This document shows, one piece after another, positions 5,322 to 49,390 of a stretch of DNA of 64,000 bases. The position numbers were made by a program, and so were the translations under genes. This DNA comes from a plasmid. Position 1 is the first letter of the stretch. The number at the start of each line of letters is the position of its first letter. Under the pieces are notes generated by a model. The model did no database searches. It had not been told where the DNA came from and saw nothing but the letters and a program-made list of their open reading frames with translations. The stretch lies in sequence record NZ_CP135254.1; one strand, written 5' to 3'.

Positions 5322-5330
5322 TCGTCGACC

Positions 5331-9046: not shown

Positions 9047-9056
9047 TCAAGCTTCC

Positions 9057-11934: not shown

Positions 11935-11940
11935 ATCTAC

Positions 11941-12960
11941 CTACTTCGATAGTTCAACGAAGGGCGACAGCACTTCCAGCAGCGAGAGGCCGCCGTGCGT
12001 CAATGTCGGGTAACCGCCCTGACTGCGCCACTTTCTGCGGCCCAGCGCCAACAGGTGCGCACCGTGCGGACTGTCAATTTGCAACGCAACGGGAGGCACA
12101 AAGGGGCCAGTGTCACCGTTACCAGCCTTGCTACGCCCGCTTGAGAACGTTTGCTTGAGGTGGGCGACAACCTCACCATCGGCATCGGGGAAGTAACCCG
12201 TGGCGGCGTAGCCGTGATCCGAGGTAATGACCAAGCGCCGCCCAGTGGCGAGGCGCTCAACAAAGGCCCAAAAGTCGTCACTAGAAAGTTGCTGCGCAGC
12301 ATCCTTGGTCAGCAGCTCCAGACCTTGGCCTGCGCCGTAGTCGTGCAGCTTGGCGTCTGGCCAGTGATGCCAGAACACCCAGTTCTTCGCGCCAGATGCA
12401 CTGCCCACCAAACCTTCGCAATCCTTCCACGGCAGATCGATGGTTTCGGTCTGCGCGGGTTGAAGTTTGTGTGCCAATCCACCGCCGTTGGCCTGCAACT
12501 GGCTTCGGCTGGACAAGCCCAGCGCTCGGGCAAACTCGTTGGTTTCGCCGGGTAATTCGGAGGCGGTCGCTGTGACGCCCTGCAGGGTGAATCCACGTTC
12601 TTTCGCTCCCTGCAGCAACCAAGGCAGTTCGCGCAGGCTCAGGGCATCCAGAACCAGCACGGCGCGGGCAGCACTGTTGCCATAACTCGGCTCGGCCCAC
12701 CAACGCGCAAGACGGTCTGAGGTGCGTTCCACGCCGCTGATCTCGGATTGTCCGAAGCATCGCCACAGATCCCAACCACTGGACGCAAGGAACAGATCGA
12801 GCTCGCCGATCTCGCGGTCGCGCTTTACGACCTCGCCCGGGGCATTGCCCTCGGCCAATGGTCGTGAGGCGATATCGAGCGTGCGTTCGATGATGAAACT
12901 CCACGCATCCGCTGCGGTGCCTTGAGTCAGACGCTGCAATATTCCTGCATCAAGCGCCAT
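11941..12960 (-). CDS. Short PglZ-like (alkaline-phosphatase-fold) protein
   Basis: 339 aa with RRLVITSDHGYAATGYFP, the TxDHG signature of the alkaline phosphatase superfamily to which PglZ belongs. Its start overlaps the stop of the upstream 718-aa gene (ATGA), and the SIR2 gene begins 6 bp after its stop. It is much shorter than BREX type-1 PglZ (about 850 aa). Confidence 0.45.
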   Translation of the reverse strand: MALDAGILQRLTQGTAADAWSFIIERTLDIASRPLAEGNAPGEVVKRDREIGELDLFLASSGWDLWRCFGQSEISGVERTSDRLARWWAEPSYGNSAARAVLVLDALSLRELPWLLQGAKERGFTLQGVTATASELPGETNEFARALGLSSRSQLQANGGGLAHKLQPAQTETIDLPWKDCEGLVGSASGAKNWVFWHHWPDAKLHDYGAGQGLELLTKDAAQQLSSDDFWAFVERLATGRRLVITSDHGYAATGYFPDADGEVVAHLKQTFSSGRSKAGNGDTGPFVPPVALQIDSPHGAHLLALGRRKWRSQGGYPTLTHGGLSLLEVLSPFVELSK

Positions 12961-16995: not shown

Positions 16996-17421
16996 ATGAT
17001 GCAAACAGAACTTAATCCCCTGATCTGCTCCCTGGTCGCCACCCCTCGCCGTATGGCTGCAATGCCCCGCTATGTAGGCCGTTTCTATGTGGTTTTCGAG
17101 TCGATGCTTTACCAGCAAATGAAAGGGCTCTGCCGCGAGTATCGCGGGGCTTATTGGCTTATGTGGGAGCTGTCGAACGGCGGCTTTTATATGGCTCCTG
17201 GGCGTCGTGATGAAATGCTGAACATCGAGGCCATGAACTACTTTAGTGGCCAAATGAGCGCCGATGCTGCCGGGATTACCGCTTGCCTCTACCTCTATAG
17301 CCATCTGTCATTTCACACAGAAGGCGCTGACCAGGAGCGGTTTTCAAGGCTGTATCACAGCTTGCGGGATTGGGCTTGTGAGCATGACGAAAAAGAGGCC
17401 ATCTTGGCCGCAATAGACTAG
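16996..17421 (+). CDS. klcA: KlcA/ArdB-family antirestriction protein
   Basis: 141 aa (MMQTELNPLICSLVATPRRMAAMPRYVGRFYVVFESMLYQ...ILAAID) matching the KlcA family pattern. It sits at the typical position next to KPC islands. Confidence 0.65.
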   Translation: MMQTELNPLICSLVATPRRMAAMPRYVGRFYVVFESMLYQQMKGLCREYRGAYWLMWELSNGGFYMAPGRRDEMLNIEAMNYFSGQMSADAAGITACLYLYSHLSFHTEGADQERFSRLYHSLRDWACEHDEKEAILAAID

Positions 17422-19280: not shown

Positions 19281-20162
19281 TTACTGCCCGTTGACGCCCA
19301 ATCCCTCGAGCGCGAGTCTAGCCGCAGCGGCGATGACGGCCTCGCTGTGCTTGTCATCCTTGTTAGGCGCCCGGGTGTAGACGGCCAACACAATAGGTGC
19401 GCGCCCAGTGGGCCAGACGACGGCATAGTCATTTGCCGTGCCATACACTCCGCAGGTTCCGGTTTTGTCTCCGACTGCCCAGTCTGCCGGCACCGCCGCG
19501 CGGATGCGGTGGTTGCCGGTCGTGTTTCCCTTTAGCCAATCAACAAACTGCTGCCGCTGCGGCGCAGCCAGTGCAGAGCCCAGTGTCAGTTTTTGTAAGC
19601 TTTCCGTCACGGCGCGCGGCGATGAGGTATCGCGCGCATCGCCTGGGATGGCGGAGTTCAGCTCCAGCTCCCAGCGGTCCAGACGGAACGTGGTATCGCC
19701 GATAGAGCGCATGAAGGCCGTCAGCCCGGCCGGGCCGCCCAACTCCTTCAGCAACAAATTGGCGGCGGCGTTATCACTGTATTGCACGGCGGCCGCGGAC
19801 AGCTCCGCCACCGTCATGCCTGTTGTCAGATATTTTTCCGAGATGGGTGACCACGGAACCAGCGCATTTTTGCCGTAACGGATGGGTGTGTCCAGCAAGC
19901 CGGCCTGCTGCTGGCTGCGAGCCAGCACAGCGGCAGCAAGAAAGCCCTTGAATGAGCTGCACAGTGGGAAGCGCTCCTCAGCGCGGTAACTTACAGTTGC
20001 GCCTGAGCCGGTATCCATCGCGTACACACCGATGGAGCCGCCAAAGTCCTGTTCGAGTTTAGCGAATGGTTCCGCGACGAGGTTGGTCAGCGCGGTGGCA
20101 GAAAAGCCAGCCAGCGGCCATGAGAGACAAGACAGCAGAACTAGACGGCGATACAGTGACAT
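19281..20162 (-). CDS. blaKPC-2: Class A carbapenemase KPC, with a KPC-2-type residue at position 272 (His)
   Basis: The translation matches KPC along its full length ([33 protein letters not shown]...[27 protein letters not shown]). His272 excludes KPC-3. The listed ORF begins one ATG upstream; the true start is the second Met. Confidence 0.93.
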
Positions 20163-20437: not shown

Positions 20438-21418
20438 CTATATGTCAAGACCCGGCTGGTTATACACGCGTTTCCTGAACAATTCAGGGCGTTTTTCATG
20501 CCATTCCTTGAGCGCCTGAACGGGTGTTTTGTGTTGGAGCGCGCGTTGCGGAATGCTGTGGTTGTAGATCTTGACGTAATTGCGCAGCGTCGATTCCAGT
20601 TCGGCAGCTGAACCAAAACGGGTCTGGTTGACGATGTCGCTGATACGACCGTTGAAGCGCTCCACCATGCCGTTGGTCTGCGGATGACGAGGCGGGATGA
20701 GCCGGTGCTCGATGCCGAGCTGCTTGCACAGGCGGTCGAACACGTGTGTGCCGCTGGGTTCCTTCTTCTTGCCGCCAGCCGTGAAGCGGTCGGTGAACTG
20801 GCTGCCGTTGTCGGTCAGAAGCTTGACGATCTTGACGGGACAGGCTTGCTGGACTTTGTTGAGGAAGTCGCCACTGCTGCCATCGGTCTGGTCGGCATAG
20901 AGCTCGATGAAGACCCAGCGCGTAGCACGGTCGATGGCAACGAAGAGATAGCGCCTTGCCGTCTCGTCGGGCATCTGCGGCAGGTACTTGATGTCGATGT
21001 GCACAAAGCCCGGCTCGTAGTCCTTGAAGGTCTTTTTCGTGGCGGGCGCAGTGCCTTCCTGCTCGACCAGGTTACGTAGATCCGAGACACCGTGGCGGCG
21101 CAGGCAACGTCCCAGGCCGGCACGCGAGACGGCTGGATTGATGAACTCGCGCGTGACCGCCAGCAGGTCGTCCGTGGGCAGCAGCAACGTCTTGCGCAGC
21201 TCCACCACGATGAGCTCCTGCTCGGGCGTGAGCGTCGTGTACATCTTGTTCGGCGCATGCGACTTGTCTTCAGGAGACTCGCGGTTTTGCCACTTTCGGA
21301 TGGTTTGGCGGGTGACGTTGTACATCCTGGCCAGTTCGGCCTGCGGGAGCGTCGAGTTCCTGATTTCCTCACGGATCAGGTGGGTAGTACGGGCTTGGCT
21401 GTGCAGTGCCTGGGTCAT
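20438..21418 (-). CDS. tnpA: IS481-family transposase (ISKpn27-like)
   Basis: 326-aa ORF containing a DDE integrase core. Its stop codon lies in the flanking target duplication. Confidence 0.7.
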   Translation of the reverse strand: MTQALHSQARTTHLIREEIRNSTLPQAELARMYNVTRQTIRKWQNRESPEDKSHAPNKMYTTLTPEQELIVVELRKTLLLPTDDLLAVTREFINPAVSRAGLGRCLRRHGVSDLRNLVEQEGTAPATKKTFKDYEPGFVHIDIKYLPQMPDETARRYLFVAIDRATRWVFIELYADQTDGSSGDFLNKVQQACPVKIVKLLTDNGSQFTDRFTAGGKKKEPSGTHVFDRLCKQLGIEHRLIPPRHPQTNGMVERFNGRISDIVNQTRFGSAAELESTLRNYVKIYNHSIPQRALQHKTPVQALKEWHEKRPELFRKRVYNQPGLDI

Positions 21419-21522
21419 CGAGTTGCCAGTGAAGAGTCGGATTGGAACAGTGTACGCAAAACGTGTCTGGCCTTGAAGAGCGGCCAGCTACGCATGGGTA
21501 CATGATCCCACGAGTCCAGACA
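20443..21522 (-). mobile_element. IS481-family insertion sequence (ISKpn27-like), 1080 bp, with a 6-bp target duplication CCTATA
   Basis: The ends TGTCAAGACCCGGCTGG and TGTCTGGACTCGTGGG read inward. CCTATA is duplicated at 20437-20442 and 21523-21528. The element is inserted just downstream of the tnpR stop, within Tn3. Confidence 0.75.
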
Positions 21523-21540
21523 CCTATAAAAATAGGCGTA

Positions 21541-22260
<720 letters not shown>

Positions 22261-25200
22261 ATGCCCGTTGACTTTCTGACCACTGAGCAGACTGAAAGCT
22301 ATGGCAGATTCACCGGTGAACCGGATGAGCTTCAGCTGGCACGATATTTTCACCTTGATGAAGCAGACAAGGAATTTATCGGAAAAAGCAGAGGTGATCA
22401 CAACCGTCTGGGCATTGCCCTGCAAATTGGATGTGTCCGTTTTCTGGGCACCTTCCTCACCGATATGAATCATATTCCTTCCGGCGTCCGGCATTTTACC
22501 GCCAGACAGCTCGGGATTCGTGATATCACCGTTCTTGCAGAATACGGTCAGAGGGAAAATACCCGCCGTGAGCATGCAGCGCTGATACGTCAGCACTATC
22601 AGTATCGTGAATTTGCCTGGCCCTGGACATTTCGCCTTACCCGTCTTTTATATACCCGGAGCTGGATAAGCAACGAACGTCCTGGCCTGCTTTTCGATCT
22701 GGCGACAGGGTGGCTTATGCAACATCGTATTATTCTCCCCGGAGCCACTACGCTGACCCGGTTGATTTCAGAGGTAAGGGAAAAGGCGACGTTGCGCCTG
22801 TGGAACAAACTGGCACTGATACCGTCAGCCGAACAGCGTTCACAGCTGGAGATGCTGCTGGGGCCAACTGATTGCAGCCGCCTGTCTTTACTGGAATCAC
22901 TGAAAAAGGGCCCTGTGACCATCAGTGGTCCGGCGTTTAATGAAGCAATTGAACGCTGGAAAACTCTGAACGATTTTGGCCTGCATGCTGAAAACCTGAG
23001 TACACTCCCGGCTGTGCGCCTGAAAAATCTCGCACGTTATGCTGGTATGACTTCGGTGTTCAATATTGCCAGGATGTCACCGCAGAAAAGGATGGCGGTT
23101 CTGGTTGCCTTTGTCCTTGCATGGGAAACGCTGGCGCTGGATGATGCATTGGACGTTCTGGACGCCATGCTGGCCGTTATCATCCGTGACGCCAGAAAGA
23201 TTGGGCAGAAAAAACGGCTCCGCTCGCTGAAGGATCTGGATAAATCTGCATTGGCGCTCGCCAGCGCATGTTCGTACCTGCTGAAAGAAGAAACACCGGA
23301 CGAATCGATTCGTGCTGAGGTGTTCAGCTACATCCCAAGGCAAAAGCTGGCTGAAATCATCACGCTTGTCCGTGAAATTGCCCGGCCCTCAGACGATAAT
23401 TTTCATGAAGAAATGGTGGAGCAGTACGGGCGCGTTCGTCGTTTCCTGCCCCATCTGCTGAATACCGTTAAATTTTCATCCGCACCTGCCGGGGTTACCA
23501 CTCTGAATGCCTGTGACTACCTCAGCCGGGAGTTCAGCTCACGGCGGCAGTTTTTTGACGACGCACCAACGGAAATTATCAGTCGGTCATGGAAACGGCT
23601 GGTGATTAACAAGGAAAAACATATCACCCGCAGGGGATACACGCTCTGCTTTCTCAGTAAACTGCAGGATAGTCTGAGGCGGAGGGATGTCTACGTTACC
23701 GGCAGTAACCGGTGGGGAGATCCTCGTGCAAGATTACTACAGGGTGCTGACTGGCAGGCAAACCGGATTAAGGTTTATCGTTCTTTGGGGCACCCGACAG
23801 ACCCGCAGGAAGCAATAAAATCTCTGGGTCATCAGCTTGATAGTCGTTACAGACAGGTTGCTGCACGTCTTTGCGAAAATGAGGCTGTCGAACTCGATGT
23901 TTCTGGCCCGAAGCCCCGGTTGACAATTTCTCCCCTCGCCAGTCTTGATGAGCCGGACAGTCTGAAACGACTGAGCAAAATGATCAGTGATCTACTCCCT
24001 CCGGTGGATTTAACGGAGTTGCTGCTCGAAATTAACGCCCATACCGGATTTGCTGATGAGTTTTTCCATGCTAGTGAAGCCAGTGCCAGAGTTGATGATC
24101 TGCCCGTCAGCATCAGCGCCGTGCTGATGGCTGAAGCCTGCAATATCGGTCTGGAACCACTGATCAGATCAAATGTTCCTGCACTGACCCGACACCGGCT
24201 GAACTGGACAAAAGCGAACTATCTGCGGGCTGAAACTATCACCAGCGCTAATGCCAGACTGGTTGATTTTCAGGCAACGCTGCCACTGGCACAGATATGG
24301 GGTGGAGGAGAAGTGGCATCTGCAGATGGAATGCGCTTTGTTACGCCAGTCAGAACAATCAATGCCGGACCGAACCGCAAATACTTTGGTAATAACAGAG
24401 GGATCACCTGGTACAACTTTGTGTCCGATCAGTATTCCGGCTTTCATGGCATCGTTATACCGGGGACGCTGAGGGACTCTATCTTTGTGCTGGAAGGTCT
24501 TCTGGAACAGGAGACCGGGCTGAATCCAACCGAAATTATGACCGATACAGCAGGTGCCAGCGAACTTGTCTTTGGCCTTTTCTGGCTGCTGGGATACCAG
24601 TTTTCTCCACGCCTGGCTGATGCCGGTGCTTCGGTTTTCTGGCGAATGGACCATGATGCCGACTATGGCGTGCTGAATGATATTGCCAGAGGGCAATCAG
24701 ATCCCCGAAAAATAGTCCTTCAGTGGGACGAAATGATCCGGACCGCTGGCTCCCTGAAGCTGGGCAAAGTACAGGTTTCAGTGCTGGTCCGTTCATTGCT
24801 GAAAAGTGAACGTCCTTCCGGACTGACTCAGGCAATCATTGAAGTGGGGCGCATCAACAAAACGCTGTATCTGCTTAATTATATTGATGATGAAGATTAC
24901 CGCCGGCGCATTCTGACCCAGCTTAATCGGGGAGAAAGTCGCCATGCCGTTGCCAGAGCCATCTGTCACGGTCAAAAAGGTGAGATAAGAAAACGATATA
25001 CCGACGGTCAGGAAGATCAACTGGGCACACTGGGGCTGGTCACTAACGCCGTCGTGTTATGGAACACTATTTATATGCAGGCAGCCCTGGATCATCTCCG
25101 GGCGCAGGGTGAAACACTGAATGATGAAGATATCGCACGCCTCTCCCCGCTTTGCCACGGACATATCAATATGCTCGGCCATTATTCCTTCACGCTGGCA

Positions 25201-25266
25201 GAACTGGTGACCAAAGGACATCTGAGACCATTAAAAGAGGCGTCAGAGGCAGAAAACGTTGCTTAA
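22261..25266 (+). CDS. tnpA: Tn3 transposase TnpA
   Basis: 1001-aa ORF starting MPVDFLTTEQTESYGRFTGEPDELQLARYFHLDEADKEF, the Tn3 TnpA N-terminus. The stop lies inside the terminal IR. Confidence 0.9.
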   Translation: MPVDFLTTEQTESYGRFTGEPDELQLARYFHLDEADKEFIGKSRGDHNRLGIALQIGCVRFLGTFLTDMNHIPSGVRHFTARQLGIRDITVLAEYGQRENTRREHAALIRQHYQYREFAWPWTFRLTRLLYTRSWISNERPGLLFDLATGWLMQHRIILPGATTLTRLISEVREKATLRLWNKLALIPSAEQRSQLEMLLGPTDCSRLSLLESLKKGPVTISGPAFNEAIERWKTLNDFGLHAENLSTLPAVRLKNLARYAGMTSVFNIARMSPQKRMAVLVAFVLAWETLALDDALDVLDAMLAVIIRDARKIGQKKRLRSLKDLDKSALALASACSYLLKEETPDESIRAEVFSYIPRQKLAEIITLVREIARPSDDNFHEEMVEQYGRVRRFLPHLLNTVKFSSAPAGVTTLNACDYLSREFSSRRQFFDDAPTEIISRSWKRLVINKEKHITRRGYTLCFLSKLQDSLRRRDVYVTGSNRWGDPRARLLQGADWQANRIKVYRSLGHPTDPQEAIKSLGHQLDSRYRQVAARLCENEAVELDVSGPKPRLTISPLASLDEPDSLKRLSKMISDLLPPVDLTELLLEINAHTGFADEFFHASEASARVDDLPVSISAVLMAEACNIGLEPLIRSNVPALTRHRLNWTKANYLRAETITSANARLVDFQATLPLAQIWGGGEVASADGMRFVTPVRTINAGPNRKYFGNNRGITWYNFVSDQYSGFHGIVIPGTLRDSIFVLEGLLEQETGLNPTEIMTDTAGASELVFGLFWLLGYQFSPRLADAGASVFWRMDHDADYGVLNDIARGQSDPRKIVLQWDEMIRTAGSLKLGKVQVSVLVRSLLKSERPSGLTQAIIEVGRINKTLYLLNYIDDEDYRRRILTQLNRGESRHAVARAICHGQKGEIRKRYTDGQEDQLGTLGLVTNAVVLWNTIYMQAALDHLRAQGETLNDEDIARLSPLCHGHINMLGHYSFTLAELVTKGHLRPLKEASEAENVA

Positions 25267-25299
25267 CGTGAGTTTTCGTTCCACTGAGCGTCAGACCCC
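25262..25299 (-). repeat. Tn3 38-bp terminal inverted repeat (tnpA-side end)
   Basis: Reverse complement of the Tn3 IR. Confidence 0.85.
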
Positions 25300-25305
25300 T
25301 TATCC

Positions 25306-25654
25306 CGAAGAGCTGTCCGTCGCCGGTAGCTATATTGAGGGCGCCACAAAATCCATCACCATCAACGCGTATGAACGCGACCCGGCCGCACGGCGGGCCT
25401 GTATCGCGTATCATGGTGCCGTCTGTCAGTGCTGCGGATTCGATTTTGAGAAAACCTGGGGTGAGCACGGGAAAGGATTTATCCACGTTCATCATATCCG
25501 GCCGCTGAGAACACTCGGACCTGACTATCAGATTGACCCGGTCAACGAGCTGGTCCCGTTGTGCCCGAACTGCCATGCCATGATTCATCGGGGCAATGAG
25601 GCAAAGCCGTTGTCCGTTGAGGAATTACGCGCCATGATGAGGCCCTCCGGCTGA
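25306..25654 (+). pseudogene. HNH endonuclease gene, 5'-truncated by the Tn3 insertion
   Basis: The reading frame continues out of the Tn3 IR into an HNH domain (CQCCGFDF...HVHHIRPL...LCPNCHAMIH). There is no independent start upstream, because the listed ORF begins inside the IR. Confidence 0.45.
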
Positions 25655-26286: not shown

Positions 26287-26899
26287 CGTGGCGCTGACAC
26301 ACAAAACAGGGCATCTGGCATGGTGCGCACTTGTCGCGCTGGCACTGGCCAGAAAGGAGCAGGGAGAGCTGTCTCCTGCACAGGAAAACCTTTTTCTCAC
26401 CCGCTGGCTGGCGACAGCGCTGAAACAGCGGCGATTTCCGCGCGATGTTACACCCGATATCGAATGGTTACTGAATCAGGGGCGTTTGCTGGGTGTGAGA
26501 GCAAAACTGGCCGACAAACTGGACTATGTCTGGCGCTCCTGCAGCGGCGAGCTGACTGAACAGAACGACATGTTCCGGCTGACGTATGCGCTGGAAACAG
26601 CGAAAGACATGGGCTGGAATTACCGCGTAATGAGCGACAGAGAATGGGCCGGGCGATATGCCTTGGTACTCAATCCTGGAGTAAACGGCGTTTATCTCTT
26701 ACGGACAAACCTCGATGCCGCTTTTGACGACAATGGCCAGCAGACAAATCCGCTGACAGCACGTCTGACAGGGAGCGTAGCAGGGGTAATGAAGCTGTTA
26801 AATCGCTGTGGCTGGCAGGCAGAGCCTGAGTCTGGTGCCTCCCTGCCCCACCAGTATTCACTGATGGCCGGACAGGGAGTGCCAGGAAAGGGGGATTAG
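26287..26899 (+). CDS. Hypothetical protein (about 204 aa, GTG start)
   Basis: An RBS-like aagggag lies 8 nt before the GTG. No recognisable domain. Confidence 0.35.
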
Positions 26900-27849
26900 T
26901 GGCGGATCTGCGCCAGGTCTTCTTCCGTCAGACCGGTCACTTTCATGACAGTATTGCGGTCAATGCCGTTCTGCAGCATGGTACGGGCAATTTTAAGAGT
27001 AGCTTCGCGCTCGCCTTTTTCAATACCACGTTGTTCACCCAGCTGGATGCCCTGCTCGATCCCCTGCTGGATACCCTTCTCAATACCTTTTTGCTCGAGC
27101 TGTTGTGCGATCGTCATGAGGGCGTCTCCGTGTTGCGGCACACGCTGTGCCAGTTCGCGTACAAAGGCTTCGGCGTCCGATGTTTCACCTGCCTGCACGA
27201 TATAGTGTACCAGCGATACTACCTGTGATGAAGACAGATATCCGGCCAGCAAAATGGGCGCCAGGCGGTCAACCAGTTCAGCGAGATCGCGCTGATGAAT
27301 ATGTTTCTGCAGCAAGGTCAGGGCAGCCATACTGCGATGCCCGGCGATTTCATCATCCGGAATGACCGTGACGTCTACCAGCGGGAAAGCGCTGCTGTAG
27401 AGTGTTCCGGCCAGAATCGGGTCGTCAAACTCATCCAGCCAGCGGGTGGAGTACGGATACGGGCTGCGTTTACCGGTATAGAAAAGGACCGGTATCACCA
27501 GTGGCAGCTTCTTATGGCCAGCTTCCAGGTGTCGCTGCATGGCGGCCACCGCATAGCGTATCAGGCGAAAAGCCATATGTTTGTCGGGTGAGGACTGATG
27601 CTCAATGAGCACGTGAACGTAGCCATCCCCGGCGGTAGTTTTCAGGCTGTAGAGAACGTCGCTGAAATACTGGCGGAGATCATCCTCAATAAACGAGCCG
27701 GATTCCAGTTTCAGTGTGCTGAGGTCGCAGATGGCCTGCAGCTCTGCCGGGAGGTGCAGCTCCATGAAATCCCGGGCAATATCCGGTTGCGTCAGAAACT
27801 GCCTGAACGTAGCATCGTGAGGAGTGGGTGTGCTGTTTTTCTTCTTCAT
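26896..27849 (-). CDS. rpn: Rpn-family (YhgA-like, PDDEXK_7/Transposase_31) recombination-promoting nuclease
   Basis: 317-aa protein from the MKKKNSTPTPHDATFRQF start, with the typical Rpn N-terminal nuclease region and a C-terminal repeat (GIEKGIQQGIEQGIQLGEQRGIEKGE). Confidence 0.6.
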   Translation of the reverse strand: MKKKNSTPTPHDATFRQFLTQPDIARDFMELHLPAELQAICDLSTLKLESGSFIEDDLRQYFSDVLYSLKTTAGDGYVHVLIEHQSSPDKHMAFRLIRYAVAAMQRHLEAGHKKLPLVIPVLFYTGKRSPYPYSTRWLDEFDDPILAGTLYSSAFPLVDVTVIPDDEIAGHRSMAALTLLQKHIHQRDLAELVDRLAPILLAGYLSSSQVVSLVHYIVQAGETSDAEAFVRELAQRVPQHGDALMTIAQQLEQKGIEKGIQQGIEQGIQLGEQRGIEKGEREATLKIARTMLQNGIDRNTVMKVTGLTEEDLAQIRH

Positions 27850-28256: not shown

Positions 28257-28877
28257 TTATTTATCAGCGCTGGAGCAGACCCGGATCACAGTCATTTTAG
28301 AAACGCCAGCCAGGCGAGCTGTTTCTCGCAGCGATTTTCCATTGACCAGGCGCAGAGTGCGAATCAGTTCGTGTTTCTGCGCATCGGCCACCCTGCCCCG
28401 GTATTTTCCTTCTGCTTTCGCCTTACTGATACCCTCTGACTGTCGACGTCGACGGTCTTCGTAATCTTTTCGGGCAATAGCGGCCAGCATATCCAGCATC
28501 ATGCCATTTACGGCCTTCAGCATGCTTCGGGTAAAGTCATCACTTACTGTGCTGGATAGCGCCAGATAGCTGGTCGGTAGATCAAGACTGACGATGGCCA
28601 GCTGCTTGTCTGTAATTTGCTTTCTGAGTGTCTCCCAGCCTGCATCATCCAGGCGAGTGAGCCTGTCGACCTGTTCAATGAGGATCACATCACCAGGTTC
28701 CGCATCACCAAGAAGCCTGATCAGTTCAGGGCGGTTCATTGTCGTACCGGAGACATTATCGATATACCAGCCAGCAATACGGTGGCCATGTTGGTTTGCA
28801 AACGCCTTCAGTACATTTTTTGCCCGGCTGGCATCCTGCTCTGAAGTGGATGCCCGGAGATACCCAAAAACGAACAT
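28257..28877 (-). CDS. Serine recombinase (resolvase/invertase family)
   Basis: Starts MFVFGYLRASTSEQ, with the catalytic Ser in YxRxSTxxQ. Length about 206 aa. Confidence 0.7.
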   Translation of the reverse strand: MFVFGYLRASTSEQDASRAKNVLKAFANQHGHRIAGWYIDNVSGTTMNRPELIRLLGDAEPGDVILIEQVDRLTRLDDAGWETLRKQITDKQLAIVSLDLPTSYLALSSTVSDDFTRSMLKAVNGMMLDMLAAIARKDYEDRRRRQSEGISKAKAEGKYRGRVADAQKHELIRTLRLVNGKSLRETARLAGVSKMTVIRVCSSADK

Positions 28878-29255
28878 TTTTTGTCCTGATGGTAACATTT
28901 AAGTGGTACTGCTCATCATGGTATCACTTAAGTAGTCACAATAAAATTACCCGGTATCTTTTTGGGTGGTACATATAAAGTATACTGGGCCGATTTTCTC
29001 CGCTTTATGCCATACCTGCCGAATTTTAAGCAGAATTCACGTAGCGTGATCGATTGTAAAGATCGCTTAACTCCCCTCTTAATAAATCTCATATCACTAT
29101 GTAAAGAAGCCATTTCCCGTTCCAAGCCTCACTTAAGGTGCTTTTTAGAAACAGCAGCTATCGATGGTTGGTACTGTTTAAATATCCAGATTAAACCTTT
29201 CCCTCTGGGTCAGATGAGTGATAAAGTTTCACCTATAAGACCCATTGGAGGCATT

Positions 29256-30689
29256 ATGTCTGAATTTGAATTACTGGCGCAGGATCTGCTTGAGAAAGCA
29301 GAGATAGACGAAAAGCTCCGGCAGGAAAATGATAAAAAGCTAATTGAGCAGGTGCTGGAAATCTATGATCAGAAGTACGTGGCCGAGTTACTTAGGAAAG
29401 TCGGCAAAAACGAGTGGACTCGCGAGACTCTTAATCGCTGGATTAATGGTAAGTGTTCACCTAAGTCGCTGACGTCAGCCGAAGAGGCTCTTCTGCGAAA
29501 AATGCTGCCGGAAGCGCCAGCGCATCACCCGGACTATGCTTTCCGGTTTATTGACCTGTTTGCCGGCATTGGCGGTATACGAAAAGGCTTTGAAGCCATC
29601 GGTGGCCAGTGCGTTTTTACCAGTGAATGGAATAAAGAGGCTGTGCGCACGTATAAAGCCAACTGGTTTAACGATGAGCAGGCACACACGTTTAATCTCG
29701 ATATCCGGGAAGTTACGCTCAGTGACAAACCTGAAGTACCAGAAACTGATGCCTATGCCTACATTGACGAGCATGTGCCGGATCATGATGTACTTCTGGC
29801 TGGTTTCCCTTGTCAGCCGTTCAGCCTTGCTGGCGTGAGTAAGAAAAACTCACTCGGCCGGGCGCACGGTTTCGAATGTGAAGCGCAGGGAACCCTTTTC
29901 TTTGATGTCGCGCGCATTATCCGCGCCAAAAAGCCGGCTGTCTTTGTGCTGGAAAACGTTAAAAACCTGAAGAGCCATGACAAGGGTAAAACCTTTAAAG
30001 TCATTATGGAGACCCTGGACGAGCTGGGTTATGAAGTGGCGGATGCGGCTGACATGGGCAAAAGCGATCCTAAAGTCATCGACGGAAAGCATTTCCTGCC
30101 TCAGCACCGTGAACGTATCGTGCTGGTTGGTTTCCGCCGCGATCTGAATATTCACCAGGGTTTTACCCTGCGGGATGTCAGTCGTTTTTATCCGGAACAG
30201 CGGCCGTCATTTGGCGAACTACTGGAGCCAGTGGTGGACAGCAAATATATCCTGACGCCAAAGCTCTGGGAGTACCTTTACAACTACGCCAAAAAGCACG
30301 CGGCTAAGGGGAACGGCTTCGGTTTTGGCCTGGTAAACCCTGAAAACAGGGAAAGCGTTGCCCGTACGCTTTCTGCCCGCTATCACAAAGACGGATCTGA
30401 AATTCTGATTGATCGTGGCTGGGATATGGCTACGGGTGAAACAGATTTCGCGAACGAAGAAAATCAGGCGCATCGGCCACGCAGGCTGACGCCGCGTGAG
30501 TGCGCGCGCCTCATGGGCTTCGAGAAGCCCGACGGCAGGCCTTTCCGTATTCCGGTGTCGGACACGCAGTCTTACCGTCAGTTCGGTAACTCCGTAGTGG
30601 TTCCTGTGTTTGAAGCGGTTGCGAGACTGCTGGAGCCTTACATTCTGAAAGCCGTTTCTGCCGGTGCTGGGAAGGTGGATAACATCTGA
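29256..30689 (+). CDS. ecoRIIM: DNA cytosine-5 methyltransferase, Dcm/M.EcoRII-like (CCWGG-type)
   Basis: 477 aa, collinear with E. coli Dcm and M.EcoRII ([38 protein letters not shown]..., [36 protein letters not shown]..., ENVKNL). An RBS ggagg precedes the ATG at 29256. The longer listed ORF from 28962 is an upstream extension. Confidence 0.8.
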
Positions 30690-30723
30690 GTGCACCTCCC
30701 GGCAGGGTATGCCGGGAGATTAT

Positions 30724-31932
30724 TTAAGCAAGATCGGCGTAAAGCCCTGTGAGCTCGGCAATAAAGGCGCCCAGCGTCATTAATTCTGCCCTTACCGCTT
30801 CCGGGTATTTTTTATGTATTGACGACGGCACGACCAGCCTGACCCCTTCCGCCTGCATTTCTCTGTACTGTGCCTGTGATACGCCCTCCTGCAGCGTAAA
30901 CAGATGAACCGGAGAAATTCTGTTGGCTTCATTCAGTATCTGGCGCCAGCGATCTTTGCAGGTGGTCTTAACTGCCAGCATACGCAGATTTTCTGCGGGA
31001 AATTCGGCGTCGTGGTAAGCCTCTGCGGAAGGGAAAAGGAAGTCAGGTTTTTTATTGCCCTCCGTAACTGCCTGCGTAGCAAAGTGCCGTAGCCCGTGCT
31101 CAATGAAGAGATGCTCCAGGTGCAGCTCCAGTGACTTTCCGGCCCGGGATTTACGACGATTACTGACAGAGTTGGCCAGCGCAATGAATTCATCCACGGA
31201 GCCAAATCCTTTCCGGATTATGTCCAGAACATGGAGTTCCTCAACCAACAGAAAAATGTCGTACTCGACGCGCCGACGGTCAATAAGCTGCTCATCCGGA
31301 TTAAGGGAATTTTTCACATAATGGCCGGCGGCATACTCAATAATTTCATTTCCGGACGGAAAGCGCTGCTGCCAGTCCTCCGGGATAGTGTATTTATGAT
31401 TAACGGGCATTTGCTGCAGAGACAGGCCGCCTAGGATTCGCCCGGCAGCCCCGGATATAAGCGTTCCGGGGATCACTTCACCAATAGCCGTCTCAATAAT
31501 GTCCTCTTCATCAGGGCTGACGCAGACCCAGATGTCGACAGCCGTACTGTCCCCGCCGTGCTCATTAAGCCTGAAAGCCAGAAGAGTCAGGGCTCCGGTA
31601 TTTTCAGGATCTTGAAGCGGGCTGCCTCTTCCCCAGCGTGTAATCCTCTTCTCGTTTCGGGTTTTACCAAAATGACGGCTGTTGTAATAAATTGCCCGGG
31701 CTTCGCTGTCCGGGCAGTCATGTGATGACACATGTGCTGTGATAAAGACTGAAGGGTTGAGCTCACGGGTATGGTTGATAGACGGAAATAGCTTCTCAAC
31801 GATACCAGAAGGGATATAAAGCCCGACCTGATGACCGCCTGTTGCGCCAGTGTCATTGGCGGAAAGGCGTTTAATGTAAACGAAGTAATTCCCGCCTGCG
31901 ATCTCAAGTAGCCAGTTATGAAAAGCCGACAT
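30724..31932 (-). CDS. ecoRIIR: EcoRII-like Type IIE restriction endonuclease
   Basis: 402-aa translation is near-collinear with R.EcoRII as recalled (MS.FHNWLLEIA..NYFVYIKRLSANDTGATGGHQVGLYIPSGIVEKLFPSINHTRELNPSVF...). It converges on the methylase gene, as in the EcoRII system. Confidence 0.8.
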   Translation of the reverse strand: MSAFHNWLLEIAGGNYFVYIKRLSANDTGATGGHQVGLYIPSGIVEKLFPSINHTRELNPSVFITAHVSSHDCPDSEARAIYYNSRHFGKTRNEKRITRWGRGSPLQDPENTGALTLLAFRLNEHGGDSTAVDIWVCVSPDEEDIIETAIGEVIPGTLISGAAGRILGGLSLQQMPVNHKYTIPEDWQQRFPSGNEIIEYAAGHYVKNSLNPDEQLIDRRRVEYDIFLLVEELHVLDIIRKGFGSVDEFIALANSVSNRRKSRAGKSLELHLEHLFIEHGLRHFATQAVTEGNKKPDFLFPSAEAYHDAEFPAENLRMLAVKTTCKDRWRQILNEANRISPVHLFTLQEGVSQAQYREMQAEGVRLVVPSSIHKKYPEAVRAELMTLGAFIAELTGLYADLA

Positions 31933-32245
31933 ACATATCCCTCTGTTGTCCTGAAATTCAACTCGTCATTTTTCCACAGTCAGACAGAAGCTGCTAGGAA
32001 GGCTTTTGTAGATGCTCTGCCTGCAGCTGAAACCGACTGTAATCAGAAAAAAGAAAAGTATCCTTCTGGGCTCCTACGGCTCGCCAGATTCTGATGGTGC
32101 AATGCAAGGTCAAATCCTGCAGCTGGCTAAAGTCCGCTATGAGCGAACAGCGGACGTTGGACTTCCCAACCTTACAAGGTAATCTAGTTTGCAAAGTTAG
32201 CGACCTCGCGCAGCCGCACTAATAAAAAGAATAGGAACGGTACAA

Positions 32246-34999
32246 ATGAACTGGATTGGTTCTCGGTGGTGGAAATTCGACTTCCATAATCACACTCCGG
32301 CATCGGACGATTATGGAAAAGGCCCTAATCAGGCCCAGTATATGCAGATCACTCATAAAGATTGGCTGCTCAACTACATGCGACAAGGCATCGATTGTGT
32401 CGCTGTCACGGACCATAATTCAGGCGCTTGGATTGATCCGCTCAAGCATGCACTCAAGGAACTGGCATCTGAGAGTCATGAAGATTATCGACCACTCTAC
32501 TTATTCCCTGGTGTTGAGCTTACTGTTCAGGGGAATATCCATATTCTGGCCATTTTCGGAGAAGACAAGACAACCTCTGATATCGACTCACTGCTTGGTG
32601 CGGTCAGGTATCGCGCCACCAAAGGAAAGAGCGACGGCTGCTCTGAATGCTCGGCAGTTGAGGTGATCGACGAAATTGCTAGGTCAGGAGGGCTTGCAAT
32701 ACCTGCTCATGTAGATCAGGTTAGCGGACTTTTTACGGTCTGTACGGGCAACACACTAGAGCAGGTGCTTGACAACAAATGTGTTTTTGCTATGGAGGTA
32801 ACGGACCTTGCTAAAGCAAAACCGCAGCTCTACATTAGCAAGAATTTGAATTGGGCAGAGATTCTTGGAACCGATTCCCATCATCCGTCCGGTACCGGAA
32901 ATCAACGCTATCCGGGTAGCCATTTCACTTGGGTAAAAATGTCGGAGCCATCTTATGACGGATTACGGCTGGCGCTCATTGATGGTGCTCTTTCACTGAA
33001 GCGGTCGGACAACTTCACTGGTGACCCCAATATCCATGGACAACTTGCCATCGAAAGTATCGTGGTTGATGATGCGAAGTACTTAGGGCGAGGGCAATCT
33101 TTATCTTGTCAACTGAACCCCTGGCTCAACACTATCATTGGTGGACGAGGCACTGGGAAATCGACATCGTTGGAATTCCTGCGGATTGCTCTTAAACGAA
33201 AGGGAGAAATCCCCAAGAGCCTTGAAAAGGAATTTACCAAATACAGTCAAACTTCGAAAGACCGCCAAGATGAAGGGCTGTTAAAAGATTCCACGAAAAT
33301 AACTGTAGGCTTTCGAAAAGACGGTGGCCGTTTCCGAATCACCTGGTCTAATACCGACGACATATACAGCATCGAGGAAGAGACCGCTCCCGGAGTCTGG
33401 TGTGCTTCCGAGGGAGACATAGCACAACGATTTCCTGTCAGGATTTACAGCCAGAAACAGATATTCGAATTGGCAAAGCATCCCCAAGCACTCTTGCAAG
33501 TTGTCGATGATGCCGCGGTGGTCAATCATCGTGATTGGCAGCTTAAGTGGGATGAACTGGTTTCCAAATATTTCTCGCTTCGCGCCCAAGAGCGTGAAGT
33601 TCAGACCGGGCTTCAGGAGGAATCGGTAACCAAAGGTCAGCTTGAAGACGTCAAACGCAAACTCGATGTTTTTGAAAAGGCGGGCCACGCGGATGTCCTT
33701 AAGGCTTACCAACTCAGACAGAACCAGAGTAAGGCTATGGACTCTTGGGTAACGACTTGGGAGGGTTCCGCCGAACAGGTCCGAGATATTTCTGGAAGAC
33801 TGCTGCCAGCAGAATTGGATCTACAATATTTCGACATTGGGAATGCGGATGACAAAGAACTCTTCGATACCATCAAGGGCATCCGTGCGACGTTTGAGAA
33901 GCTTCAGACAGAGATGAACTCGATCGCGCAGCGGATTGATGATGTAAAGAACTCATGGAATCAAACTCGGTCAGACTTGGGAATATCGAAAAGAATTACA
34001 GCGGCGAGCCATGAATACACCGGCCTCCTCGGTCAACTCAGCGCAGCAGACGCAGGTGATCCATCTGCATATGGTGTTCTGGTTAAGCAGCGACAAGATT
34101 TCGAAGATAAGCTCAAGGGATTCGACAAAAAGAGAGAAACTCTTGCGCAGCATCAGAAGAGCGCGGAAGAATACTTGGTCAAGCTCCATGAGCATCGAGC
34201 ATTGATAACCAAGCTCCGTGAGGACTTTCTCAAGGATACCCTCGTCGGCAATTCATATGTACAGATCAATGTCATTCCGTTTGGAAACAAGCTTACGGTT
34301 GAGGAAGAATTCCGTAACCTGATCGGCCGCAGTAGTGGCGGATTTGACCGCGACATTGGAGTTGTTGACGGGGATGAGGGCTTGCTGGCTTATTTAACGC
34401 AAGACCAATCCAATACTATGGATGATAAAATTGAGAAAATAAAATCATCGCTACTTGCAATCCATGAAAACGATACTGTGGCGGTGGATTCCTGCAAAGA
34501 TCGACGTTTTGTATCCCACATTCAGGGGCTAACTCCGGAACAGATAGATCGAATTCAGTGCTGGTTTCCTGGTGATTCTCTGGATATCAGATATAGCCTC
34601 AAGAACGGCGAGAGTTTCAAACCCGTAGAGCAAGGATCTCCGGGGCAAAAAACGGCGGCTCTCCTTGCATTTATCCTTTCATATGGCAATGAGCCTCTTA
34701 TACTTGATCAGCCTGAGGATGATCTTGATAACCACTTGATCTATGATCTGATCGTAACGCAATTGCGTGAGATCAAACAAAAACGGCAGGTTTTAGTAGT
34801 CACGCACAACGCTAACATCGTCGTGAATGGTGATGCGGAAAACGTCATTGCCCTTGATATTCGGTCTGGCCAAACCAGAATTGTGACGCAAGGGGGTCTT
34901 CAAGAACCTTCCATACGCGATGAGATATGCAGAGTGATGGAAGGTGGCAGAGAGGCCTTTACCCAAAGATATAAACGAATCAATGCAGCAATCACATAG
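32246..34999 (+). CDS. PHP-domain phosphoesterase fused to an SMC/ABC-type ATPase (Ppl-like single-gene defence candidate)
   Basis: 917 aa. The N-terminus carries PHP motifs (FDFHNHTPASDDYG, VAVTDHN, AHVD). The central part has Walker A GGRGTGKST and coiled-coil-like segments. The C-terminus has a signature/Walker B LILDQPEDDLD and VLVVTHNANIV. Confidence 0.65.
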   Translation: MNWIGSRWWKFDFHNHTPASDDYGKGPNQAQYMQITHKDWLLNYMRQGIDCVAVTDHNSGAWIDPLKHALKELASESHEDYRPLYLFPGVELTVQGNIHILAIFGEDKTTSDIDSLLGAVRYRATKGKSDGCSECSAVEVIDEIARSGGLAIPAHVDQVSGLFTVCTGNTLEQVLDNKCVFAMEVTDLAKAKPQLYISKNLNWAEILGTDSHHPSGTGNQRYPGSHFTWVKMSEPSYDGLRLALIDGALSLKRSDNFTGDPNIHGQLAIESIVVDDAKYLGRGQSLSCQLNPWLNTIIGGRGTGKSTSLEFLRIALKRKGEIPKSLEKEFTKYSQTSKDRQDEGLLKDSTKITVGFRKDGGRFRITWSNTDDIYSIEEETAPGVWCASEGDIAQRFPVRIYSQKQIFELAKHPQALLQVVDDAAVVNHRDWQLKWDELVSKYFSLRAQEREVQTGLQEESVTKGQLEDVKRKLDVFEKAGHADVLKAYQLRQNQSKAMDSWVTTWEGSAEQVRDISGRLLPAELDLQYFDIGNADDKELFDTIKGIRATFEKLQTEMNSIAQRIDDVKNSWNQTRSDLGISKRITAASHEYTGLLGQLSAADAGDPSAYGVLVKQRQDFEDKLKGFDKKRETLAQHQKSAEEYLVKLHEHRALITKLREDFLKDTLVGNSYVQINVIPFGNKLTVEEEFRNLIGRSSGGFDRDIGVVDGDEGLLAYLTQDQSNTMDDKIEKIKSSLLAIHENDTVAVDSCKDRRFVSHIQGLTPEQIDRIQCWFPGDSLDIRYSLKNGESFKPVEQGSPGQKTAALLAFILSYGNEPLILDQPEDDLDNHLIYDLIVTQLREIKQKRQVLVVTHNANIVVNGDAENVIALDIRSGQTRIVTQGGLQEPSIRDEICRVMEGGREAFTQRYKRINAAIT

Positions 35000-35104
35000 A
35001 ACGGAGTTGCACTTGAACGGCAATTGCGCTGAGCTCAATTGCCGCCAATGCTTGGTCGTTAATGTCTGCTCCTGGCACAAAGCAGACATACTCAGAAAAG
35101 CAAC

Positions 35105-35701
35105 TCATGAACGAGCATCAGCGTCCTCCATTATCGCTTTCACTCTTAAAATGGTCTGCCGTGTGGTGTCAAATTCGCGGGCGATCGCGCTGATACTCTT
35201 CCCTTCACTAAGACGCAAGAACACCGCTTTCTTTTGTTCGTCATCCAGAGCCGGCGGGCGGCCGAAACGCTTTCCGGATGCCTTAGCCCGCGCAATACCA
35301 GCATGTGTACGTTCAAGTAGCAGATCGCGCTCAAATTCAGCAACCGCCGAGATTACCTGCATTGTCATCTTTCCGGCCGGACTGGTGAGGTCTACCCCTC
35401 CCAGCGCCAGGCAGTGTACCCGTATTTCTGACGCAGAAAGTAGCTCAACGGTTTTTCTGATATCCATGGCGTTTCGCCCGAGGCGATCCAGCTTCGTTAC
35501 GATTAAAACGTCCCCGTTTTCCATTCGATCAAGGAGACGCATAAATCCAGGGCGTTCAGCAGCCGCGACTGAACCACTTATGTACTCTTCAATCAGTCGC
35601 TGGGGTCTGATGGAAAAGCCGGCCGCTTCGATCTCACGACGCTGGTTTTCAGTGTTCTGTTCGAGGGTCGATACCCTGCAGTAGGCAAAAACTCGTGACA
35701 T
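35105..35701 (-). CDS. Serine recombinase (resolvase)
   Basis: [15 protein letters not shown]...DRLGRN...; 198 aa with a C-terminal HTH. Confidence 0.75.
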
Positions 35702-48349: not shown

Positions 48350-48706
48350 CTATCGCTCAGCCAATACGAAACCGGCATTGGCTGATGCCACAACCGAGAC
48401 TAACACAAATGGCTCGGTACCTGTATTTCGCGCCCCGTGCACTTGGCCCGGTCTTGCCACGGCTATCTCACCTTCCCTGAGGGCACGAACAATCCCATTG
48501 CCCTGAAAGTAATCAGCCATTCCCGACAAAACAGTCCACGTGTCTTGGCCGTGAGGATGAATGTGAGCCGCAATTTCCTGCCCGGGATGGACATGCCAAA
48601 CCACGATAATTGAGTCTCGGGTTTCAAGCACAACGGAACGAATAGGCTCGCCTTCGGACGGCTGAACATACTCGGCTACAGAAAATATTCTCGATTCAAC
48701 AGTCAT
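48350..48706 (-). CDS. Cupin-domain protein (about 118 aa; an alternative start at 48745 is possible)
   Basis: Two-His cupin motifs (HVHPGQEIAAHIHPHGQDTW...GQVHGARN). Confidence 0.45.
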   Translation of the reverse strand: MTVESRIFSVAEYVQPSEGEPIRSVVLETRDSIIVVWHVHPGQEIAAHIHPHGQDTWTVLSGMADYFQGNGIVRALREGEIAVARPGQVHGARNTGTEPFVLVSVVASANAGFVLAER

Positions 48707-49097
48707 CGGAGATCCCTCTTTCACAGTTGTCGTTACGGTCTTCATCGTCGGCATCCTGACGCACGGCGGGCAATTGCTGGAGCAACGCCGGCAGCCATTC
48801 CTGTACCGTCTCCCACACCACATCGAGGTTGATGTCGAAATAGCCGTGAGCCATGCGATTACGCATATTGCGCATGCTGCGCCACGGCACGTCGGCATGC
48901 GCCTGGGTGAACTCGACGTAGCCATCCATCACCTTTGTGGCCGCCTCGCCGATGACGATCAGGCTCATGATGACGGCCTGCTGGGTGCGCTTGTCGGCCA
49001 AGAAGTCGTCCTTGGCCATCCCTTCCACGAAGCTGCGCGCATCGGTTGCGGCCTGCTGAATGTGGTCGAGGTAATCGGGCAGGCGGTTCTCGCTCAT
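48696..49097 (-). CDS. hepT: HepT-like (DUF86, HEPN-family) toxin
   Basis: 133 aa ending in the HEPN Rx4-6H motif region (RNRMAHGY). It overlaps the upstream MNT gene by 4 bp. Confidence 0.6.
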   Translation of the reverse strand: MSENRLPDYLDHIQQAATDARSFVEGMAKDDFLADKRTQQAVIMSLIVIGEAATKVMDGYVEFTQAHADVPWRSMRNMRNRMAHGYFDINLDVVWETVQEWLPALLQQLPAVRQDADDEDRNDNCERGISDDC

Positions 49098-49390
49098 ATC
49101 GGTTGCGCCTCCGCGAGCACCTTGGCCCGGAACTTCGGCGGCAGGTCGCCGGGAGTCAGCAGATCGACGTCAACGCCGAGCAGCGATTTCAGTTCTTCTT
49201 CCAAATCGCCCAAGTCCAACAACGTGGCACCGGGCAGCGCATCGACCAACAGGTCGAGGTCGCTGCCATCCCGGTCGGTGCCATGCAGCACCGAGCCGAA
49301 GACGCGCGGGTTCGCGGCGCGAAAGCGGCCTACCGCTTCACGCACTGCGCTTCGCTTCATGTCAAGCACAACAGACGGTCGCATGCGCAT
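49094..49390 (-). CDS. mntA: MntA-like nucleotidyltransferase antitoxin
   Basis: Minimal NTase fold GS...DLDLLVD. It pairs with hepT, as in HEPN/MNT TA modules found next to Tn3-family transposition genes. Confidence 0.6.
   Translation of the reverse strand: MRMRPSVVLDMKRSAVREAVGRFRAANPRVFGSVLHGTDRDGSDLDLLVDALPGATLLDLGDLEEELKSLLGVDVDLLTPGDLPPKFRAKVLAEAQPI

Follow-up and report, generated by a model that had tools for sequence, protein, structure and literature searches.

The gene at positions 32246..34999 (plus strand) of a 64,000-nucleotide stretch of record NZ_CP135254.1, hereafter the window, probably encodes an intact, stand-alone defence protein of the TrlF/Ppl family with a Ppl-like mechanism. 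The sequence of the window is the same as that of the first 64 kb of pKP18-2110-2-2 (NZ_CP084988.1), a 142-kb conjugative IncFII/IncU plasmid of Klebsiella pneumoniae that carries KPC-2. The gene is an ATG-initiated open reading frame (ORF) of 917 codons whose product is entered in RefSeq as WP_075606932.1, "TrlF family AAA-like ATPase". The original prediction, made from the letters of the window, had singled out this gene as a fusion of a PHP phosphoesterase with an SMC-type ATPase resembling the antiphage protein Ppl. We confirmed the ORF, and every motif quoted for it was present in the translation, namely HNHTPASDDYG (residues 14-24), VTDHN (54-58), AHVD (154-157), GGRGTGKST (299-307), DQPEDDLD (821-828) and VVTHN (851-855). 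Our reading draws on the architecture and fold of the protein, its intact catalytic residues, the purifying selection acting on the gene, its sporadic carriage on mobile elements, and the location of its relatives in defence islands or embedded in other defence systems. The antiphage activity, substrate, polarity, control by nucleoside triphosphates (NTPs) and trigger of the window protein we infer by analogy with Ppl.

The protein matched the Ppl and TrlF profiles far beyond chance. The PADLOC Ppl model (PDLC02208), which had been proposed as a check, aligned end to end (E 3.7e-156, residues 4-912 on profile positions 3-892 of 894), and the NCBIfam TrlF model NF045780 scored 640.6 bits against a cutoff of 350 (E 6.9e-192, residues 5-912 on positions 2-943 of 944). 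The model of the Spaf_1101 family AAA-like ATPase (NF045781) scored 278.6 bits, below its cutoff of 475. Using tblastn on plasmids, we recovered a protein named Ppl by PGAP, WP_000233113.1, which is encoded on an IncF plasmid beside pifC and the presumed pifA. This protein scored 1330.5 bits with the Ppl model and 476 bits with the TrlF model. Ppl thus also clears the TrlF cutoff and belongs within TrlF, the wider of the two families. In a representative library this family comprised 1281 clusters at 50% identity (E <= 1e-30). Ten family representatives of Ppl-like length were considered as true Ppl, and none reached the Ppl cutoff. A literature search on the origin of the name TrlF gave no paper that explains it, only spectroscopy and unrelated items.

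The window protein and WP_000233113.1 aligned over their full length with 30% identity and 49% similarity (E 8e-124), and the catalytic motifs were all in register. Like Ppl, the single-gene antiphage system of Gao et al. (2020), the window protein consists of a PHP nuclease and an ABC ATPase split by a coiled coil; both have a C-terminal GG..AF..RY.RI tail, and both are encoded by single genes on plasmids and other mobile elements. However, the window protein falls in a separate clade, whose nearest outgroup has a partner gene. Taken together, these comparisons place the window protein within a divergent clade of the TrlF/Ppl family, one that a standard PADLOC run would already call Ppl and whose family is named in RefSeq. 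The likeness to Ppl that had been proposed thus held at the level of family membership, but the window protein is not an orthologue or equivalog of the tested Ppl.

Residues ~5-262 (32258..33031, plus strand) form a PHP-fold, metal-dependent phosphoesterase (nuclease) domain. Since the Pfam PHP model did not match either the whole protein or residues 1-280, even at E <= 10, we tested this domain independently by comparing a profile with solved structures, by a fold search and by ligand conservation. A profile built from 118 full-length relatives (33-53% identity to the window protein) matched solved PHP enzymes, all on residues 12-126: Vibrio cholerae RNase AM 9etk (1e-9), 3e0f (3.5e-9), RNase AM 7ug9 (1.8e-8) and TM0559 2anu (7e-8). 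AlphaFold (AF2) modelling, which had been suggested for the nuclease fold, returned a PHP fold for residues 1-264 with a predicted local distance difference test score (pLDDT) of 97.4. When this model was searched with Foldseek, the best 22 PDB matches were all PHP domains, including 3o0f, Endonuclease Q 5zb8 (TM 0.66), 2anu, RNase AM 7ug9 and the PHP domain of Pol III alpha. The predicted metal ligands H14, H16, D56, H57, E91, H99, H155, D210 and H212 were invariant in 118 of the 118 relatives, and these nine residues constitute the classical PHP metal-ligand set. The PHP call made from the sequence motifs therefore stands, and the profile search that might have overturned it retrieved solved PHP enzymes instead. 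Endonuclease Q, RNase AM (YciV/TrpH) and the PHP exonucleases of Pol X and Pol III alpha share their fold and His/Asp/Glu trinuclear-metal ligand pattern with the window protein, but, unlike it, they are stand-alone or polymerase-fused housekeeping enzymes, and their identity to the window protein is 16-23%.

The rest of the protein is an SMC/Rad50-like ABC ATPase head interrupted by a coiled coil, all encoded on the plus strand. The N-terminal lobe (residues ~266-427; 33041..33526), recognised by Pfam AAA_23/AAA_15, PDB profiles and Foldseek, carries the Walker A motif GGRGTGKST (33140-33166) and a Q-loop at Q403. The C-terminal lobe (residues ~666-912; 34241..34981), recognised by Pfam AAA_21 and SMC_N, carries a signature-like SPGQK (34637-34651), the Walker B/D-loop DQPEDDLD (34706-34729) and the H-loop VVTHN (34796-34810). 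G299, G302, K305, S306, Q403, S798, D821, Q822, P823, E824 and H854 were invariant in the 118 relatives. The profile of these relatives matched the ATPase half to PDB sequences of SMC3, SMC, SMC5/6 and Rad50 heads. Consistent with this result, the AF2 model of the full-length protein (pLDDT 93.6, predicted TM score (pTM) 0.83) matched SMC, MukB, JetC, Rad50 and RecN in Foldseek, with coiled-coil-bearing SMC heads (5xei, MukB, JetC) among the matches, which bears out the SbcC/Rad50-like ATPase read from the motifs. Neither Foldseek nor a single-sequence PDB search, which gave only ABC-F and Rad50 fragments, returned a solved Ppl structure.

Between the two lobes lies an antiparallel coiled-coil insert (residues ~428-665, ~240 aa; 33527..34240, plus strand), which AF2 built from long helices at 428-456, 458-504, 534-575, 579-600 and 607-665 (pLDDT 74-98), in keeping with the coiled-coil-like segments noticed earlier. 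Residues 428-665 contain zero cysteines, so the insert has no zinc hook of the Rad50/SbcC type. These features bear on the suggestion that the protein is SbcCD compressed into one polypeptide, with PHP replacing the calcineurin-like nuclease. As a functional analogy the suggestion is apt: SbcCD/Mre11-Rad50 also unites an SMC-like ABC ATPase, a coiled coil and a metal-dependent DNA-end nuclease, and the heads are structurally similar. Taken literally, however, it fails, in that the window protein has a PHP-fold nuclease rather than a calcineurin-like one, both parts are fused in one chain, its ~240-aa coiled coil lacks the CxxC zinc hook, and it is encoded by an accessory rather than a core gene.

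The biochemistry of E. coli Ppl offers a mechanism for this architecture. Ppl is an NTP-inhibited 3'-5' exonuclease of single-stranded DNA that is activated at 3'-OH ends; inhibition results from NTPs bound to both its PHP and NTPase domains, and activation from phage-driven nucleotide depletion together with 3'-OH ends left by phage homing endonucleases (PMC12904381). Ppl restricts phage T7 and is itself counteracted by Bas63 gp130 (PMC11482910). The primary reference for Ppl is Xu et al., Mol Cell 2026;86:180, which both PMC13434339 and a Druantia preprint cite. Since the window protein has the same architecture and keeps all catalytic residues, we take the Ppl mechanism to be the most likely one. 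At normal nucleotide levels, NTPs on the ATPase and PHP sites would hold the nuclease off. Phage infection would drain the NTP pool and create free 3'-OH DNA ends, whereupon the protein would bind such ends and its PHP domain would degrade the strand in the 3'->5' direction, so that phage DNA replication would halt.

The distribution of the gene is sporadic. Close copies were present in 17 of 5426 complete E. coli genomes (13 chromosomal, 4 plasmid), always in prophages, islands or plasmids. Forty-one plasmid records from Klebsiella, Raoultella, Enterobacter and E. coli held a copy at 97.8% nucleotide identity or more, 40 of them at 99% or more. Further copies, at 83-98% nucleotide identity, lay at the end of an E. 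coli prophage adjoining pinE, on a 269-kb E. coli plasmid, on a Hafnia IncFII plasmid, in a K. pneumoniae lambdoid prophage, in a Salmonella integrase/AlpA island near a TIR gene, at the tail end of a Proteus prophage and in a Pectobacterium island. The ratio of nonsynonymous to synonymous substitution rates (dN/dS) against six relatives was 0.12-0.31, which reveals purifying selection. The DNA of the window gene was also 80-82% identical to copies in Synergistota and Chlorobiota (loci L006 and L007), with the identity confined to the ORF; this similarity across phyla points to very recent horizontal transfer of the ORF alone.

This distribution decides against a housekeeping DNA-repair factor, that is, a fused SbcCD-like enzyme. 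An SMC/Rad50-like ATPase joined to a metal-dependent nuclease would suit such a role, and one source does name a homologue "DNA repair ATPase". Yet 0.3% of complete E. coli genomes carry the gene, whose locus varies and is in some cases on a plasmid, always within a mobile element, and its 80-82% DNA identity to copies in distant phyla points to recent transfer. The original prediction had named a conserved repair factor as the finding that would undo it; the gene proved to be mobile and patchily distributed. Its distribution effectively refutes the repair reading, to which we give next to no credence, and sporadic mobile carriage and the dN/dS values together exclude a housekeeping role in repair and support the view of a single gene as a functional unit.

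The extent of the conserved DNA supports this unit further. Across seven contexts (the window and six others) the common DNA runs only from 32129/32142 to 35079/35089, which corresponds to the gene with 104-117 bp upstream and 80-90 bp downstream. Thus, the gene travels as a 2.95-kb single-gene cassette, and the stand-alone organisation proposed for it is borne out by these short flanks and by the lack of a partner homologue in the window. The 5' leader of the cassette (32156..32245, plus strand), which includes a ribosome-binding site, was kept with the gene in all enterobacterial contexts; within it, AGGA (32233-32236) lies nine nucleotides before the ATG.

Most of the TrlF family is organised differently. 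We examined 80 species-representative loci from genomes (82 in the tally of restriction-modification contexts given below), and in 56 of the 80 a co-oriented gene of ~420 aa followed directly downstream of the TrlF gene. The product of this partner gene has SLFN_AlbA_2 and HATPase_c_4 domains (e.g. L025:12791-14062 and L058:12759-14009), for which PADLOC v2 has no dedicated model. Most of the TrlF family is thus a two-gene unit, whereas the window copy and its clade lack the downstream partner. Neither the window clade (at least 67% identity) nor the tested Ppl has a partner directly downstream, and in some loci of the clade AlbA_2/HATPase_c_4 genes stand elsewhere (237 bp downstream in L089, upstream in L007 and L095). 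In the 64-kb window tblastn found no match to a partner homologue, and the gene downstream is a resolvase on the opposite strand, a serine recombinase of the resolvase/invertase family by Pfam Resolvase and HTH_7 (35105..35701, minus strand). A 246-aa ORF overlapping the 3' end of the TrlF/Ppl-family gene (34944-35684) was considered as an HsdS or AlbA_2 partner and gave no tblastn matches.

The commonness of the partner, its presence in the nearest outgroup and its absence from the window raise the question of whether the window gene is a decaying or inert orphan that has lost its AlbA_2/HATPase_c_4 gene. We regard this as very unlikely. The invariant catalytic residues are all kept, and the low dN/dS values hold across six independent contexts. 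Moreover, the entire clade at 67% identity or above lacks an immediately downstream co-oriented partner and yet is widespread, and the tested Ppl is partnerless as well.

Carriage on mobile elements is also compatible with a selfish role in conflict between such elements, in which the protein, as an SMC-like nuclease of DNA ends, would act against incoming plasmids or rival elements, much as Wadjet does, or would stabilise its carrier through post-segregational toxicity, rather than act against phages. JetC of the anti-plasmid system Wadjet is among the structural neighbours of the window protein, the gene is always on mobile elements, and on the plasmid it sits in a maintenance region near ParA, resolvase and umuDC genes. 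However, Wadjet and Lamassu are multi-gene systems in which an SMC-like ATPase works with kleisin/KITE or LmuA-type effector genes, whereas the window cassette has no partner genes, and the match of the window protein to the LmuB hidden Markov model was weak and partial (1.4e-7). The window gene has no kleisin, KITE or JetD-type partners and the cassette no antitoxin-like one, and the homologous Ppl is documented as antiphage. A selfish function therefore seems improbable to us.

The nearest upstream genes encode an EcoRII-type restriction-modification (R-M) system, which consists of a Dcm-type C5 methylase (29256-30689, plus strand; Pfam DNA_methylase, PADLOC MTase_II) and an EcoRII-type endonuclease (30724-31938, minus strand; Pfam EcoRII-N and EcoRII-C, PADLOC REase_II), with a 307-bp gap between the R-M system and the TrlF/Ppl-family gene. 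The original prediction took this adjacency as fitting a defence role. The R-M system is real, but the adjacency is not inherited, as the DNA shared with six other contexts extends only 104-117 bp upstream from the ATG. On a Hafnia paralvei IncFII plasmid, a homologous resolvase gene lies 142 bp from the cassette without any R-M system (L098:5730-5872), whereas in the window 3.16 kb with the EcoRII R-M genes (28970-32129) stand between the cassette and the resolvase gene. By Pfam and annotation, a second serine recombinase is encoded at 28257-28877 (minus strand). This comparison indicates that the R-M system and the TrlF gene were brought together secondarily at a resolvase-adjacent accessory site. 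Remnants of hsdM or hsdS were sought beside the gene in the window by tblastn, and no matches were found.

Relatives elsewhere are tied to methylase-based systems more closely. Ten of the 82 family loci were inside bacteriophage exclusion (BREX) systems, between pglX and pglZ, and five were in or beside type I R-M systems. Proteins 83-88% identical to the window protein occurred in Synergistota, Chlorobiota, Spirochaetota, Acidithiobacillus and metagenomes (L006:8001-10772, L007:8001-10772, L089:7001-9763, L091:4142-6904, L095:7001-9763, L226:6001-8763 and L228:6001-8757). Some of their genes lie between hsdM and hsdS, where the stop and start codons overlap. Others begin two nucleotides after the PglXI methylase gene of a type-3-like BREX system and upstream of its SNF2 helicase gene, with genes intervening before the helicase gene in some of these loci. 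One relative comes right after a type 1 BREX system, and another copy is flanked by transposases. Operons of Hma, BREX, DISARM and type I R-M systems have been described as harbouring independent defence genes (bioRxiv 10.1101/2024.01.29.577857). In light of this known phenomenon, the nesting of the relatives provides strong contextual support for a defence function without proving functional coupling.

Such coupling would mean that the window protein works with the adjacent EcoRII R-M system or with methylation-based systems in general, either as a second-line effector or as a guard set off by inhibition of R-M, in the way that PrrC guards EcoprrI. The contexts of the relatives speak for it: in seven of eight look-ups of the 83-88% identical proteins the gene was within or adjacent to a type I R-M or BREX system, and in six of these it came directly after a methylase gene, either overlapping it or 2 nt away; a 37.6% identical relative on an E. 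coli IncFIA plasmid comes after a helicase and an N6 methylase; and BREX or type I R-M systems account for 15 of the 82 family loci, with the window gene itself close to an R-M system. Among the closest known systems, RloC and PrrC also fuse an ABC ATPase regulatory module to a nuclease effector and are linked to type I R-M loci, as are relatives of the window gene nested in type I R-M operons, and the NTP-sensing logic of PrrC is similar to that of Ppl. The effector of RloC and PrrC, however, is a C-terminal tRNA anticodon nuclease rather than an N-terminal PHP DNA nuclease, and no common sequence family joins them to the window protein. In the window, the nearest R-M gene is divergent rather than co-oriented, and the shared DNA ends short of it; the cassette also occurs at 91-98% nucleotide identity without any R-M in prophages, in islands and on a Hafnia plasmid of related backbone. 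The tested Ppl works as a single gene beside pifCA rather than R-M, and unrelated stand-alone systems are commonly embedded in R-M and BREX operons. We consider functional coupling unlikely.

Several observations nonetheless weigh against an autonomous protein with a Ppl-like mechanism. The score on the NCBIfam Ppl equivalog model NF042955 was 625.8 bits, below its cutoff of 1000, and with identity to the tested Ppl at 30% the trigger and the substrate of the window protein may differ. The account of the Ppl mechanism used here was taken from secondary summaries. The Pfam PHP model was silent, as described above. A promoter and terminator scan found no sigma-70 consensus match upstream of the gene, and no homologue was found in a collection of sequenced phages. 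Finally, the clade nearest the window protein (49-51% identity) has the partner gene that the window copy lacks, so autonomy is not guaranteed.

The edges of the cassette are marked by a pair of 24-nt inverted repeats, given here on the plus strand. The left (L-type) repeat, at the upstream edge, reads GTCCGCT-ATGAGCGAAC-AGCGGAC (32132..32155), and the right (R-type) repeat, at the downstream edge, reads GTCTGCT-CCTGGCACAA-AGCAGAC (35064..35087). Both recur with the gene in other enterobacterial contexts, and their consensus forms are GTCYGCT-NTGAGCGANN-AGCRGAC (left) and GTCYGCT-CYTGGCACNN-AGCRGAC (right). The motif had only two matches in the 64 kb, compared to 0.28 expected from shuffled sequence. 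The left repeat folds as a DNA hairpin (z -3.1); the variable position of the stem was not compensatory, so hairpin formation is unproven. Rfam gave no match on 31900-35300. A search for the repeat sequence in the full text of papers also gave no match, and the repeats may be known under another name.

The repeats are not restricted to this gene. The R-type repeat was present in at least 120 IMG/VR contigs, and 80 loci fetched from IMG/VR (L106-L185) contained 109 right-type and 87 left-type repeats, compared to none in shuffles. These loci comprised 52 left-to-right units of 0.5-5.2 kb, as well as 12 junctions in which a right repeat is followed after 18 nt by a left repeat, at a constant offset of 42 nt; these R-18nt-L junctions span 66 bp. 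A junction-like element was found in 717 of 5426 E. coli genomes, for example in a CFT073 island, and was never annotated. The cargo between the repeats was diverse and in either orientation. Ten cargo proteins were scanned, and three had PADLOC matches, namely PD-T7-1 (4e-157), PDC-S06 and a TIR protein. At the Pectobacterium locus the repeats also bracket a cyclic oligonucleotide-based antiphage signalling system (CBASS; SMODS and S_4TM) with a SMEK gene. Further repeat positions are L010:17128, 20459 and 22654, and L100:5845-5910.

A tyrosine recombinase of ~200 aa was considered as the recombinase of these cassettes; it was present in only 11 of 129 repeat-bearing loci and absent from the window, and is therefore no obvious candidate for that role. 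In Pectobacterium a conserved gene of this kind (annotated "site-specific integrase", e.g. WP_001305361.1 in CFT073) immediately follows the TrlF cassette (L010:12859-13467, minus strand), another is at L230:11124-11726 (minus strand), and remnants are at L103:~8864-9468 and L002:14864-14980 (Salmonella and E. coli APEC O78). The repeats may be protein-binding palindromes, or may provide portable homology for phage recombinases. In the latter respect they can be likened to the "linker sequences" proposed for the mosaicism of lambdoid phages. A tentative, rather doubtful extension of these observations is that the TrlF gene is cargo of an integron-like cassette system of Enterobacterales, in which single defence genes or small operons bracketed by L and R repeats would be joined in series at R-18nt-L junctions and would pass between prophages, islands and conjugative plasmids; such a cassette would then have captured the gene from a clade whose members elsewhere are hard-wired to a position just after the methylase genes of type I R-M and BREX systems.

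Other defence-related genes accompany the gene in the window. An operon on the minus strand (2514-15077) encodes DUF499, hypothetical, SIR2 family, ATP-binding, DUF1156, hypothetical and SNF2-related proteins, and by its product names it looks like an Hma (helicase-methylase-ATPase) system with an embedded pair of SIR2 and ATPase genes. It is followed by an antirestriction protein gene (16996-17421) and by blaKPC-2 with ISKpn27, a resolvase and a Tn3 transposase (19281-20162; 20438-25266). Resistance, anti-restriction and several defence genes are thus found within about 35 kb of one conjugative plasmid. The window also encodes a small HNH endonuclease (25268-25654) with a weak match to models of type IV methyl-directed restriction enzymes (E 6e-9), an Rpn/YhgA-like recombination-promoting nuclease (26896-27849), and a DUF86 and nucleotidyltransferase pair (48696-49384; a HepT/MNT-type toxin-antitoxin pair by product names) that adjoins a Tn3-family transposase. 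The PGAP-named ppl gene, of the validated type, on IncFIA/FIC plasmids (L004:1227-8673) lies beside pifC and a P-loop NTPase gene, with a pair of nucleotide-binding-protein genes nearby. We take the P-loop NTPase gene to be the T7-exclusion gene pifA by its position rather than its annotation, in which case these genes and ppl would together make up a small cluster of defence genes close to the replication region.

The TrlF/Ppl-family gene is fixed within a lineage of conjugative plasmids that encode the KPC-2 carbapenemase, alongside the EcoRII R-M system and the Hma-like operon. If it is active, these resistance plasmids would disseminate resistance to phages as well, which is relevant to phage therapy directed at carbapenem-resistant Klebsiella. 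As for the family, a clade as divergent from Ppl as 30% identity could reveal which of the NTP-sensing and DNA-end-sensing features of Ppl are general. The two-gene organisation of the majority, the hard-wiring of relatives to methylase genes and the repeat-bounded cassettes hold more potential novelty than the gene itself, and all three can be pursued cheaply by comparative genomics.

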